From Okamejei kenojei (Eukaryota): a DNA stretch of 64,000 bases. The stretch covers positions 186,001 through 250,000 of the forward strand of contig CM069142.1 of assembly GCA_035221665.1 (NCBI GenBank), read 5' to 3'. Below are positions 26,122 to 32,100 of this stretch, piece by piece; the stretch's first letter is position 1, and each line of letters starts with the position of its first letter. The position numbers were made by a program.

Positions 26122-29100
26122 GGCATCGAATATCGGGTAGAATTTTCCGTATATGCAGCATCAAAGTAGCGGGACACCAAAATAGACACTTACTGAAGAA
26201 TCACCCAATTGTTTTATCTGAAAATTCTGAGTTATGGAGGCTATTAAATAAGTGCAATCCAGAAAATAGTCATCAATCATTCCACACTGCTAACAATTTC
26301 AAAGTTTCTCATGACCAACAATCAGAAACAAAGTGCCAAACTTAGTTAATCCATCCGTACAGTATATGTTTTACTTTACCATACTAGAGACACTGTGCTG
26401 AAACAGGTCCTTCGGCCCATCGGGACCACGCCGACCAGCGATCACCCCATACGCTAGGACTATCCTACACACTGCACATGGCGGAGTATTCGGCTAGCCA
26501 CGCGGTGGGAGGATCCCGGCAAGCCTCGGCAAAGCCCACCAGCAGGCCCAGCTGACTTGCCGTGGACTGAGCACCTGCTCCCCAGACTGGAACCCACCTG
26601 TAAGGCCCGGCTCACCCGCCCAGAGTGGAGTGAGTTGGACAGAGTGCCAGTAAGCAGACCGGCTGCAGGAGGCAGTGCACTGCACTGCCTTGACGGGGGA
26701 GTGGGCCGCTGGAGGCCCTGCAACAGCCTGGGCCTCGGCTGGACTGGGCACCGCTCCAAGAGGCCGAGCACATGGACCGGGCGCCGTTTAGAGTGGTGGA
26801 GGACATCATGGTCGCACATGGCCCGGCCGACCCTCCAATGCACCTGGACAACAGGCCTCATGGTCAATAAAGACCCTGCATTTACAATTGTCACTCGAAA
26901 ATGGCACCAAATATGGTGACTGTACACTGACTTGGTGTGCTACTGCAAGACACTTGTATCTGCGATGCTCTGCTAACATGTATCTAAGTGTTTCTGTATA
27001 GTGACATTAATATACAGAAATGAATTTCACTGTACCTCAGTACATGAGAGAAATAAAGTGCCATTGAATCACTGAACACTAGGAATAATTTACAATTTCT
27101 GGAAGCCAATTAACCTACAAACGCCGTCTTTGGAGAATGGGAGGAAACCGGAGCACCCGGAGAAATCCTACGAGGTCAGAGGAGAATGTACAAACTCCAT
27201 TACAGACACCCCCCCAGTCAGGATGGAAACCCGGGTCTCTGGCGCTGTGAGGCAGCAGCTCTACCACTGCGCCCACTGTGTCAGACACTACACGTGACAA
27301 TATTAAACCTAACTCTAAATCTTGTGGTCGGTGAGACTAAATCCTGGAATAGTTCACCAACAAACTTGTCAATGACTGATGGATTGACAAAAATGTCTGC
27401 CTACCTTTGTCTACCTTCGATTTTTCCAGCATCTGCAGTTCTTACTCTTAAAACAATGACTGATGATCTCACATTATGAATGAAAAATATCTCTAATAAG
27501 CTTATTTAAATTAACTTTTACTTGATTAATAATCTCAGAGATAAAACTTACCCGAGAAGCCCCACACTCGAGTCTGTTTTTTTCATCCACTTATGCCACA
27601 TTGAGCAGATGTACTGATTCTGTTCCCTCATATGCGTTCAGATTGTGGGTCACGTTGAAATAGCCATTGCTTTCTCCCATGATTATTTCACTGTACTTGT
27701 TTAAATCGTTCCCCGATTTGTCCTTCCACTCCACCGTTGGGACAGGATACCACCCTGACGACTGGCAAGACAGCGTGCCCTTTCCGGAATTCCAGAATAC
27801 TTTGATAAGATCAGGAGCAGCTGCCAAGAAAAGAAACATAAATAGCAACCATTAATGGTGACATGATGGTGCAGCGGTCGAGTTGCTGCCTCACAGCGCC
27901 ACAGACCTGGCTTCCATCCTGACTATGGGTGCTGTCTGTACGGAGTTTGTCCGTTTTACCCGTGACCGCGTGGGTTTTCTCCAGGTTGCTCCATTGTCCT
28001 CCCACACTCCAAAGACGTGCAGGACAATTAAGATTTTTTACCGATGCCAATTAAAACCTACCGACCTAGGATAGACATAAAATGCTGGAGTAACACAGGC
28101 AGCATCTCTGTAGAAGGAATGGGTGACGTTTCGGGGGGTCAAGACCTTCTTCAGGCCTGTATGCCTTGTGTGGGAGGAAGCTGGTGTCCCCGGAGAATAC
28201 CCACGTGGTCACGGGGAGAATGTACATACTCCATACAGACTGTACCCATAGTAAGGATCGAACTCTGGTCTCTGGTGCAGCAAGACAGCAACTCTACCAC
28301 TGTGCTGCATTAAAAGCTGTATAATTAGACACCCCAACTACACCCCTGTTCTTTGTTACTTTGATGCCATGGACATTCTCAGCTACATTCCTCCTGGCAG
28401 AGGCATGAAAGTTTATTTTGAACTGGTGGAACTTCACAAGAGAATTTTGATGAAGGGAGATGACACAAGAATTTTCGGCATCTGGCTTCCTGTAAAAAAA
28501 GCTGTGTTAAGAATTAAAAAGAATCCCTAATACTGAACAATTAAATAAATAAACCCAGGTACATTTGACCCTCACTGTAAACAGAACAAGAGAGAAGACA
28601 AGGAGGTTTCCAGTAGTGCGTGAGTCTAGGACCCGAGGGCACAGCATCAGAATAAAACAATGTTCCTTTAGAAAGGAGAAGAGGAGGAATTTCTACAGCC
28701 CGAGGGTGGTGAATCTGTGGAATTCATTGCCACAGACAGCTGTGGAGTCCAAGTCATTGGGTATTTTTAAAATGGAGATTGATAGGTTCTTGATTAGTAC
28801 GGGAGTCAGGGGGTATGGGGAGAAGGCAGGAGATGGACCCGATGGCCGAATGGCTGCTCCTATCAAGTATGAAGACATACCCCAAACAGATAGCTGGACA
28901 AATCCAGCTCCATATCCATTGTCAGTGCTAATACTGACAATGTACTTTCCCTCATCCCAGATGTCGACATTCTTCAATGTAAGGAATGCTTTTCCTTCTT
29001 TAAATGAGAATGTGTCGACTTCAATTCTTCCCGAGTAGTTGGCATGTTGTTTGCTGACATCGCTTTTATCTTCCTTGTACTCGTACAAGATTCCGGCATC

Positions 29101-32100
29101 TTGATCCTTCTCCCACCTCACCCTCGGTGCACATGGATCGTCGCACTCAAACGTACACTTGAAGGTGACATCCTTGCCGATCTCTACATCTGTGGCTGGT
29201 TCACAAGTGATGAATGCATCTGAACAAAAGACAGAAACGGGTTATTATTGTCACCTTCACTTGAGTTGAGTTTAGTTTATTGTCACGTGTACCGAGGTAC
29301 AGTGAAAAGCTTTTTGTTGGGTGCTAACCAGTCAGCAGAAAGACAATACATGATTACAATCGAGCCGCCCAAAGTGGACAGATACACGATAAAGGCAACA
29401 ATGTGCACAATGTTTAGCGCAAGATAAAGTCCAATCAAAGATAATCTGGTGGTCTCGAATGAGGTAGATAGTAGTTCAGGAATTCTCTCTAGTTATTGGT
29501 GGGATGGGTCAATTGTCTAATAACAGCTGGGAAAAAACTGTCCCTGAATCTGGTGGTGTGTGTTTTCATACTTCTGTACCTCTTGCCTGATGGGAGAGGG
29601 GAGAGGGAAGAAGAGGCAGTGGCCAGGGTGCAACTTGTCCTTAATTACGCTGCTGGTCTTGCCGAAGCGAGTCAAAGGAATGGAGGTCCCGACCCGAAAC
29701 GTCCCCCGTTCCATCTCTCCAGAGATGCTGCCAGTTCCGCTGCGTTACTCCAGCATTTTGTTGTCTATCAAAAAGAATGGAGGTTGGTTTGTGTGATGGT
29801 CTGGGCTTTCTTGTCTGTGTTCACAACTCCCTGCATTTATTGCGGTCTTGAGCTGATCCCAAACCAGGCTGTGATGCATCCTGATAAAATGCTTTCTGTG
29901 GTGCATATGTAGAAGTTGCTGAGAGTTGTTGGGGATATGCACAGAGATACAGCAAAAAGCTTTGTTTAGCATGCAGTCCAATCATATCTGATACTATACA
30001 TAAATACAATCATGCCAAACTCCAACAAAGAGAGTGCAGAATATAGTTCTCAGCATTGTAGCGCAATAGTTCCATAGACAAAGGAGTTGGAGTCTGAGGG
30101 TGGTGAATCTGTGGAATTTATTACCACAGACAGCAGTGGATACTGTCTTTTTTTAAATCAGAGATTGCTAGATTCTTGACTAGTAAGCGTGTCAGATATG
30201 CCATTTCTTGCGGCCTTGGTAGGTAATTATATGTTATTGTCGTTGGTTTACTATTGTCACCTGTACTGAGATAATGTAAAAATATATCATTATGTGCTAT
30301 CCAAACAGATCATATCATACACAAATACAACAGGTTGTGCTAAAGACAAATGAAATGAAAATTACAGTGTAGGAAGGAACTGCAGAGGCTGGTTTACACC
30401 GAAGGTCGACACAAAATGCCGGAGTAACTCAGTGGGACAGGCAGCATCTCTGGAGAGAAGGAATGGGTGAAGTTTCAGGTCGGGACCTTTCTTCAGACTG
30501 AGTGTCAGGAGAGAGGGAAACAGAGATGTGGAAGGGTAAGGTGTGGAAACAAGAAATCAAAAGGGGAGTTGTCAAGGAAAATATAGAATGAATCATTGTT
30601 AGCAGCGGGGCCGTGACAACAATGCATCCAACCAGTAAAATTTAATCAGGAGGAAATTAATTGAACTAGCATGAGGGAGAAATGGAGAAAGGACAAAAGC
30701 AAGGATTGCTTGAAGTTACAGAAGTCAATATAAATACATATAACCATATAACAATTACAGCACGGAAACAGGCCCTCTCGGCCCTTCCAGTCCGTGCCGA
30801 CCATTTGTTTTCCCCTAGTCCCATCAACCTGCACTCAGACCATACCCCTCCATTCCCTTCACGTCCATATACCTATCCACTTTACTCTTAAATGTTAAAA
30901 TCGATCCTGCCTCCACCACTTCTGCTGGAAGCTCATTCCACACAGCCACCACCCTCTGAGTAAAGAAGTTCCCCCACACTTTACCCCCGAAACCTCTGTC
31001 CCTTTAATTCTCATGTCATGCCCTCTTGTTTGAATCTTCCCTACCCTCAATGGGAAAAACGTATCCACGTCAACTCTGTCTATCCCTTTCATCATTTTAA
31101 AGGACCTCAATCGAGTCCCCCCTTAACCTTCTGCGCTCCAAAGAATAAAGACCTAACTTGTTCAACCTTTCTCTGTAACATAGTTGCTGGAACCCTGCAA
31201 CATTCTAGTAAATCTCCTCTGTACTCTCTCTATTTTGTTGACATCCTTCTTATAACTAGGCGACCAAAAATTGTACACCATACTCCAGAATTGGTCTTAC
31301 CAATGCCTTGTACAATTTTAACATTACTTCCCTACTCCTATACTCAATGCTCTGATTTATAAAGGCCAGCACACCAAAGGCTTTCTTTACCACCCTATCT
31401 ACATGCGTTTCCACCTTCAGGGAACTATGCACAGTTATTCCTAGATCCCTCTGTTCCACAGCATTCTCAATTCCCTACCATTTACCATGTACGTCCTATT
31501 TTGATTTGTCCTGCCAAGATGTAGCACTTCACACTTAACAGCATTAAACTCCATCTGCCATCTTTCAGCCCACTTTTCCAAATGGCCCAAATCTCTCTGT
31601 AGACTTTGAAAATCTACTTCATTATCCACTACACCACCGATCTTAAGTATCATCTGCATACTTACTTATGCAATTTTTCCACCCCATCATCCAGATCATT
31701 GGACCCAACACAGATCCCTGAGGCACCCCACTGGTCACCGGCTTCCAACCTGACAAACAGCCATCCACCATTACTCTCTGACATCTCCCATTCAGCCACT
31801 GTTGAATCCATCTTGCTACTCCGCCATTAACACCAAAAGATTGAACCTTCTTAACCAACCTTCCATGGGGAACCTTGTCAAAGGCCTTACTGAAATCCAT
31901 ATAGACAACATCCACTGCTTTACCCTCATCAATTTCCCTAGTTACCGCTTCAAAAAATTCAAGAAGGTTTGTCAAACATGACCTTCCAGGCACAAATCCA
32001 TGTTGACTGTTCCTGATCAGACCCTGTTTATCCAGATGCTTATATATATTATCTCTAAGTATCCTTTTCATTAATTTGCCCACCACTGACGTCAAACTAA

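Follow-up and report, generated by a model that had tools for sequence, protein, structure and literature searches.

A most likely secreted B7/butyrophilin-type protein of cartilaginous fishes whose V domain lacks the F-strand cysteine in skates, sawfish and stingrays and may carry rewired disulfides

We analysed a 64,000-nucleotide stretch of DNA from the skate Okamejei kenojei (GenBank assembly GCA_035221665.1, contig CM069142.1, positions 186,001 to 250,000 of the forward strand; hereafter the window), which carries on its minus strand, at 28881..29219, an immunoglobulin V-type (IgV) exon with valine in place of the F-strand cysteine and with three cysteines beyond the one on strand B. On balance, we consider it probable that this exon belongs to a four-exon gene for a secreted protein of the B7/butyrophilin type, and that the V domain of its skate, sawfish and stingray members, having lost the F-strand cysteine, holds one bond between strands A and B and another within a CxxxC motif. 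The immunoglobulin (Ig) fold has the B-F disulfide as its hallmark; where this bond is lost, one usually has either a dead gene or a domain that manages with no core bond.

The IgV exon comprises 112 complete codons with split codons at both ends, contains no stop, and is in phase 1 at each end; read from 29219 to 28881, it follows a pyrimidine-rich acceptor (...ttttgttcag) and precedes the donor G/gtatgt. The Pfam V-set model (PF07686) matched it with 37.5 bits (cut-off 26, E = 3.1e-9) over profile positions 5-108 of 109. When the split first codon is counted as residue 1, the four cysteine codons (29131..29205, minus strand) encode Cys6 on strand A (TGT, 29205-29203), Cys22 on strand B (TGT, 29157-29155), Cys26 four residues further (B+4; TGC, 29145-29143) and Cys30 a further four residues on (B+8; TGT, 29133-29131), which are residues 5, 21, 25 and 29 in the exon numbering used for the structural model. 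The B-strand cysteine of the canonical V-set pair is kept, and the F-strand position, following DEGKYI, is occupied by valine (GTC, 28938-28936, minus strand), so that the pair is absent. An earlier note on this DNA had described the open exon, its good splice sites, cysteines 6, 22, 26 and 30, and DEGKYIV with GTC at 28936-28938, and it was correct in every particular. In an alignment of the family (A3), all 16 of its 16 rows carry the tryptophan of strand C (W35) and the D-x-G-x-Y motif before strand F (D88, G90, Y92) without variation, all 25 invariant columns of this alignment are kept in the exon, and an N-x-S/T sequon at N60 (N60-Y-S/T), read by eye, is likewise present in every row. A tblastn search with the exon for paralogous V exons within the window returned only the exon itself, the next match having an E-value of 0.16.

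A search with the exon alone retrieved six proteins of 228-238 amino acids that were 62-91% identical to it: P0001 (Leucoraja, 91%), P0002 (91%), P0003 (Amblyraja, 90%), P0004 (Rhinoraja, 86%), P0005 (Pristis, 75%) and P0006 (Narcine, 62%). A profile of these six orthologues found nine more proteins, namely those of Hemitrygon and Mobula, those of the sharks Mustelus, Pristiophorus, Heptranchias, Heterodontus, Carcharodon and Scyliorhinus, and one further record. An exhaustive search with a profile, run over 1.84 billion representatives, gave 3140 matches at E ≤ 0.001, 51 of them at E ≤ 1e-30, and added P0026, which is named 'CD276 antigen-like, Callorhinchus milii' in UniRef (the name coming from a homologue search) and has the same tail as the rest of the family. 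We then compared five positions across lineages, in the order A, B, B+4, B+8 and F. The window and the four Rajiformes read C C C C V; Pristis (Rhinopristiformes) together with Hemitrygon and Mobula (Myliobatiformes) read C C C C F; Narcine (Torpediniformes) reads C C C C C; the seven sharks have no cysteine at A, B+4 or B+8 and the canonical cysteines at B and F; and Callorhinchus P0026 (Holocephali) reads C C G G L. Thus 8/8 batoid orthologues and 0/7 sharks have cysteines at A, B+4 and B+8, the B+4 and B+8 cysteines always occurred together (8/8 batoids versus 0/8 other family members), and the B-strand cysteine was invariant in all 22 rows of a larger alignment (A4). This distribution indicates that the batoid stem acquired the three extra cysteines before the canonical F-strand cysteine was lost; the loss took place two or more times, among batoids and in a chimaera.

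Because the orthologues share this column pattern, the valine is an inherited skate state rather than an error. That GTC is a misassembled cysteine codon is extremely improbable: the base-level accuracy of the assembly is doubtful, with gaps equalling mismatches in two pairs of repeats (4 versus 4 and 38 versus 34), but valine stands at the same position in four independent skate proteins from other species, phenylalanine stands there in three rays, and a change of TGY to GTC takes two substitutions and no indel. A TGC or TGT codon at this position in relatives, which the earlier note had regarded as the outcome that would speak against it, was not found in skates, all four skate orthologues having valine.

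To place the pattern among related domains, a local V-domain profile was applied to 164 collected proteins; of 456 domain hits, 329 did not cover the span fully and were set aside, and the remaining 127 domains spanning strands A to F, together with the window, made a set of 128. The F-strand cysteine was absent in 11 of these, and all 11 had the A-strand cysteine; it was present in the other 117, and 11 of those had the A-strand cysteine (Fisher P = 2.9e-10, uncorrected for relatedness). Three of the relatives without the F-strand cysteine (P0026, P0057 and P0161) hold just two V-domain cysteines, one at A and one at B. The three-cysteine state A + B + F occurs in P0036 and P0140, and also in Narcine. 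Judged from these sequences, the A-strand cysteine is recurrent in this superfamily (P0036, P0140, P0057, P0161). As to the proteins themselves, P0036 (1147 amino acids, with seven V domains that all have the A, B and F cysteines), P0140 (237 amino acids, one such domain), P0057 (382 amino acids), P0161 (243 amino acids) and P0016 (1363 amino acids) are butyrophilin-like representatives, and P0016, with seven near-identical IgV(-IgC) units in a run, could be a tandem array that the gene model has fused into one.

Structure prediction of the exon by AlphaFold2 with 22 sequences reached a mean predicted local distance difference test score (pLDDT) of 92.2 and a predicted template modelling score (pTM) of 0.84, with five of five models above 90, compared with a pLDDT of 77 with 7 sequences. 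The predicted V-set strands, in exon numbering, are A (3-5), A' (8-11), B (17-23), C (32-37), C' (42-48), C'' (51-53), D (65-67), E (76-81), F (90-98) and G (101-111), which gives a V-type sandwich of nine to ten strands, with C' and C'' among them. In the model, the A-strand cysteine (residue 5) closes strand A, the B-strand cysteine (residue 21) lies within strand B, and residues 25 and 29 lie in the loop between strands B and C (BC loop). Foldseek placed the model against the IgV domain of B7-H4 (PDB 4gos) with a template modelling score (TM) of 0.90, a root-mean-square deviation of 1.6 Å and 32% identity, making it joint-best by fold, with TM values of 0.84-0.91 for the PD-L1 IgV entries listed. 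The A and B cysteines are 16 residues apart, as are residues 6 and 22 of an antibody heavy-chain variable domain (VH), where residue 6 lies buried beside the canonical bond; we take this as a lead only.

These data are best explained by the following scheme. In the batoid lineage the V domain would have gained a cysteine on strand A and a CxxxC pair in the BC loop, after which the canonical F-strand cysteine would have been lost: skates have valine in its place, sawfish and stingrays have phenylalanine, and the electric ray Narcine still has the cysteine. The B-strand cysteine would then bond the A-strand cysteine, a cross-strand link between neighbouring antiparallel strands of the A-B-E-D sheet in place of the B-F bond between the two sheets, and the B+4 and B+8 cysteines would bond each other, closing and stiffening the loop that resembles complementarity-determining region 1 (CDR1). 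The connectivity is one that we infer from the comparison across species. Since P0026, P0057 and P0161 have cysteines at A and B alone, an A-B bond is the only intradomain bond possible in them. The earlier note had suggested either rewired disulfides or a dimerising or metal-binding loop; an A-B bond together with a CxxxC bond fits the comparison (8/8 batoids, 0/7 sharks, and 11 of 11 domains without the F-strand cysteine having the A-strand one), and the dimerising and metal-binding loops are not favoured.

Several observations nevertheless count against this assignment of bonds. The A-B pairing is proposed from the cysteine pattern and the predicted strand assignment; the association between the A-strand cysteine and loss of the F-strand cysteine counts related sequences, so that the independent losses are perhaps four or five rather than eleven; and the Narcine domain has five cysteines, an odd number, of which at least one must be free or link chains. 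There may be no A-B bond at all, the B-strand cysteine being buried and free, or the A-strand cysteine may pair with one of the BC loop, or the cysteines may serve a metal site or an inter-chain link. Domain 1 of CD2 is a V domain without a core disulfide, and three cysteines at four-residue spacing could in principle form a metal site. We regard this alternative as unlikely. The three relatives with A and B cysteines alone leave A-B as their sole intradomain option, which also explains why the B-strand cysteine is invariant; the joint occurrence of B+4 and B+8 (8/8 versus 0/8) is as expected if these two are paired together; and the model has both within the BC loop and not level with the B-strand cysteine, a geometric consideration that would speak against this alternative.

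The gene around the exon was reconstructed by tblastn of the six orthologous proteins, which yielded four coding pieces on the minus strand of the window. The comparison was made exon by exon, with the IgV exon, the IgC pieces, the leader and the tail each taken separately rather than as a joined transcript; the exon junctions are in phase 1 and reproduce the residues of the orthologues. A probable leader (signal-peptide) exon lies at 57966..58014 (minus strand) and reads from ATG to MIVLQTSGFSILFVSA plus one base, with the donor G/gttaagt in phase 1. Its stretch FSILFVSA corresponds to FSILFASA of the orthologues, and the split codon supplies the D of ...SAD/AF; taken alone, this exon had a weak tblastn E-value (6-11). 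The IgC exon, of the butyrophilin-type C2-set_3 class, lies at 27552..27820 (minus strand; 269 nt; Pfam PF22705, E = 5.8e-13), about 1 kb downstream of the IgV exon, and its junction codons match ...SVW A A.D... of the orthologues. The last coding exon, at 23548..23600 (minus strand), consists of the acceptor cag, a split codon for D, GHHLIRVDDGKKPSDL and a stop (E = 6e-5 to P0003); it ends in ...VDDGKKPSDL and the stop, the conserved tail of the family, which has no transmembrane segment. The introns in the window span 1-29 kb, and the first, of 28.7 kb, is packed with retroelements.

Some evidence speaks against an intact copy in the window. Against the orthologues, the IgC exon reads in three successive frames, which amounts to two +1 changes, both placed at homopolymer runs. 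The entry frame holds the B-strand cysteine segment ...LSCQSSGWYP... and reaches a stop before the donor, the next frame holds the F-strand segment NQYICSMWHKWMKK, and the third holds KKQTRV.GFS, the tblastn alignments of the six orthologues switching frame within the exon. As assembled, the window copy cannot make an intact IgC domain; it is possibly broken and may be a pseudogene. The leader start is likewise out of frame with the MYFKHL of the orthologues: the region 57966-58046 (minus strand) has an ATG-initiated frame, MIVLQTSG..., and the orthologue-like LYFKHL occurs in another frame just downstream of the ATG, a difference that reflects either a lineage-specific change of the signal-peptide start or more assembly indels.

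A decaying pseudogene, in which loss of the cysteine would be part of the decay, is a serious candidate, although we lean away from it. It would account for the two +1 changes within 269 nt, the stop in the entry frame and the out-of-frame start of the leader, and the first IgC piece is 69-73% identical to the skate orthologues, three of which are 81-88% identical among themselves. However, the IgC domain of P0004 is as far from those of the other skates (69-71%) as that of the window copy, and the IgV exon shows no stop or frame change over its 112 codons and keeps every one of the invariant columns. The cysteine pattern is common to intact orthologues, and therefore predates any decay in the window copy. 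Both IgC frame changes fall at homopolymer runs in an assembly whose indel-to-mismatch ratio is near 1. In a pair of long terminal repeat (LTR)-like sequences (33400-33900 versus 39780-40290) there were 4 gap events and 4 mismatches, with 3 of the gaps in homopolymer runs, and in a pair resembling long interspersed nuclear elements (LINEs; 30600-32300 versus 46850-48550) there were 38 gap events and 34 mismatches over 1512 columns, with 13 of the gaps in homopolymer runs. Because gap events are as numerous as mismatches in near-identical repeats, the accuracy of the assembly at the level of single bases is doubtful; this suggests an indel-prone assembly and touches every frameshift call in the window.

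All 16 family proteins consist of a signal peptide, an IgV domain, an IgC domain and a short hydrophilic tail, ending in DL in 12 of the 16, and the stop codon and the tail are conserved from the chimaera to the skates. A C-terminal hydrophobic segment was found in none of the 16, so that the membrane anchor characteristic of B7 and butyrophilin proteins is missing; the call was made from C-terminal position and composition, as the Kyte-Doolittle score in a 19-residue window stayed below 1.6 even in two VTCN1-type controls. The product is most likely secreted, and from the missing anchor and its family membership we infer a role as a soluble immune modulator. One point is unfavourable to secretion: three of the database names carry 'isoform X1/X2', and isoforms with an anchor exon could hide in the 90% clusters. 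The whole 232-amino-acid open reading frame of P0002 lies on a contig of 1458 nt despite the gene's introns of 1-29 kb, which points to a spliced transcript in some skate sample.

The automatic database names of the family disagree (VTCN1, VTCN1-like, BTN1A1-like and CD276-like). The family is of the B7/butyrophilin type with a VTCN1-like V domain, was seen here only in cartilaginous fishes, and is not filed as an established VTCN1 orthologue. The proposal of the earlier note that the exon could define an undescribed chondrichthyan B7 subfamily was partly right: the family occurs across Chondrichthyes, its members already stand in databases under automatic names, the cysteine change is limited to batoids and a chimaera, and the IgC domain is nearer to butyrophilin-like proteins than to VTCN1. 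In the accessible full text of literature on this family, on non-canonical Ig disulfides and on cross-strand disulfides, neither the family nor the cysteine pattern was described, and an earlier mention is possible; the accessible part of a nurse-shark plasma proteome paper contained no match to the terms sought, and the accessible parts of two papers on the evolution of B7 and the immunoglobulin superfamily did not treat the family.

The likeness to VTCN1 proposed in the earlier note proved real. In a comparison of the exon with PDB that returned 103 sequences at E ≤ 1, the best match was the IgV domain of human B7-H4 (4gos, E = 1.1e-11), with mouse PD-L1 (3e-7) and BTNL8 (2.9e-6) next in rank. 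In the 4gos alignment the cysteine of Y-K-C in B7-H4 stands opposite the valine, and sCTFE stands opposite kCTFE; the CTFE and ...G.L.E.KE.K...S.Q....GR stretches are common to both proteins, although B7-H4 keeps its canonical B-F pair and lacks all three of the added cysteines. A profile of the batoid proteins gave 4gos as its best IgV-only entry in PDB (59.5 bits), and the best V-domain scores outside the family, among 150 representatives, were those of the VTCN1-type proteins P0145 (76.9 bits) and P0153 (76.1 bits), the next being 74.4 and 71.1 bits. With a profile of the IgC domain plus tail, P0145 and P0153 ranked 51st and 95th of 117. No structure of a VTCN1 IgC domain was present among the PDB matches to the IgC piece or to the batoid profile, and the PDB matches to the exon and to the batoid profile included no member of the family itself. 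Butyrophilins were best among the single-stretch PDB matches to the IgC piece of the window; BTNL8 tied with ROBO1 for the top E-value, the ROBO1 match having no stretch that passed alone. The closest named relative of the V domain is VTCN1, with small margins over PD-L1 and butyrophilin-like domains in both sequence and modelled fold, and by sequence comparison the IgC domain of the family is closer to butyrophilin-like proteins than to VTCN1.

These comparisons bear on a rival reading, in which the gene is nothing other than VTCN1 (B7-H4) in its cartilaginous-fish form, an orthologue whose anchor exon the gene models overlooked. Most members are named VTCN1 or VTCN1-like by NCBI, human B7-H4 is the best solved V-domain relative by sequence and joint-best by fold at 32% identity, and the two VTCN1-type proteins have the top V-domain scores outside the family. 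We nevertheless find such orthology improbable, given that the margins in V-domain score are small, that the same two proteins rank so low with the IgC-plus-tail profile, that other members are named BTN1A1-like or CD276-like, and that the stop and the tail, with its DL end in 12/16, are conserved from the chimaera to the skates. P0153 and P0145 also differ in ending hydrophobic, with 11-13 hydrophobic residues in the last 20 compared with 6-8 in the family. Butyrophilins and BTNL proteins (BTNL8 22kk, BTN1A1 4hh8, BTN2A1, BTN3A) share the IgV-IgC architecture and the GWYP.P.V.W motif and, among two-domain PDB entries, match the batoid profile best (BTNL8, 97.7 bits). They are membrane proteins, most of them with a B30.2 domain, and no solved butyrophilin aligned here (BTNL8 alignment) lacks the F-strand cysteine.

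Bonds within a single sheet are known from other Ig-type domains. Domain 2 of CD4, an Ig-type domain of a different and membrane-bound family, has, in place of the inert canonical bond, a functional redox-active disulfide within one sheet, between other strands. It is named as an example of an allosteric bond in the accessible part of PMC1949407, according to which -RHStaple bonds typically join adjacent strands of one sheet. A closer likeness is offered by the D0 domain of human KIR2DL4: in its crystal structure (PDB 3WYR), as described in the accessible part of PMC13661046 (2026), Cys10 of strand A bonds Cys28 of strand B in a strained -RHStaple with Cys74 of strand F free, and the protein switches between A-B and B-F bonds. 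The cysteines on strands A and B recur in the window's predicted model, and the three-cysteine state A + B + F recurs in Narcine P0006, P0036 and P0140. KIR2DL4 is a membrane receptor that keeps its F-strand cysteine and is thereby able to switch bonds; in skates, sawfish, stingrays and Callorhinchus, which lack this cysteine, the A-B state would, by analogy, be fixed.

Tentatively, the family may thus present a series of disulfide exchange, in which the sharks would retain the ancestral B-F bond, Narcine, P0036 and P0140 would represent an intermediate able to toggle, and the skates, sawfish and stingrays and, independently, the elephant shark would have a fixed, strained A-B bond that could act as a redox-sensitive switch on a secreted, B7-like soluble immune modulator. 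The comparison across species traces an ordered route, from a spare cysteine on strand A through a three-cysteine stage to loss of the canonical partner, and offers a natural counterpart to the A-B allosteric bond described for human KIR2DL4 in the accessible part of PMC13661046. The stability and redox behaviour of A-B bonds would become testable in a small secreted protein, and an anchorless family of the B7/butyrophilin type, found here only in cartilaginous fishes and carrying conflicting automatic names, is flagged.

A Pfam search of 447 open frames of at least 55 amino acids for neighbouring host genes detected only retroelement domains besides the two Ig exons. A virus-like, LTR-type element of 6.8 kb (33449-40242, plus strand) lies inside intron 1 on the strand opposite the B7-like gene and is bounded by direct repeats of about 410 nt (33449-33859 and 39831-40242) that are 97-99% identical. 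Its lone domain match is a 64-amino-acid frame (37671-37862) resembling the integrase C-terminal domain of murine leukaemia virus (MLV), at 28.9 bits, a score narrowly short of the 29.2 cut-off; Pfam recognised no further retroviral domain in its open frames of at least 30 amino acids, including 62 further frames of 30-54 amino acids. LINE-like fragments with reverse-transcriptase and endonuclease domains occur at 30737-32179 (minus strand), 46989-48385 (minus strand) and 56558-57002, with further LINE-like fragments at 18909-20820 (minus strand) and 49243-50478 (plus strand), and such fragments occupy much of intron 1 and of the region downstream of the gene; the copies at 30737-32097 and 46989-48378 are about 98% identical. 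Runs of N are present at 10461-10960, 16380-16868, 23712-24027 and 24032-24398, the last two lying in the last intron and ending 112 nt upstream of the acceptor of the tail exon. On the plus strand, G strongly exceeds C at 6001-14000 and 34001-40000, with a skew of up to 0.62 at 10001-12000 and of 0.31-0.33 at 34001-38000.

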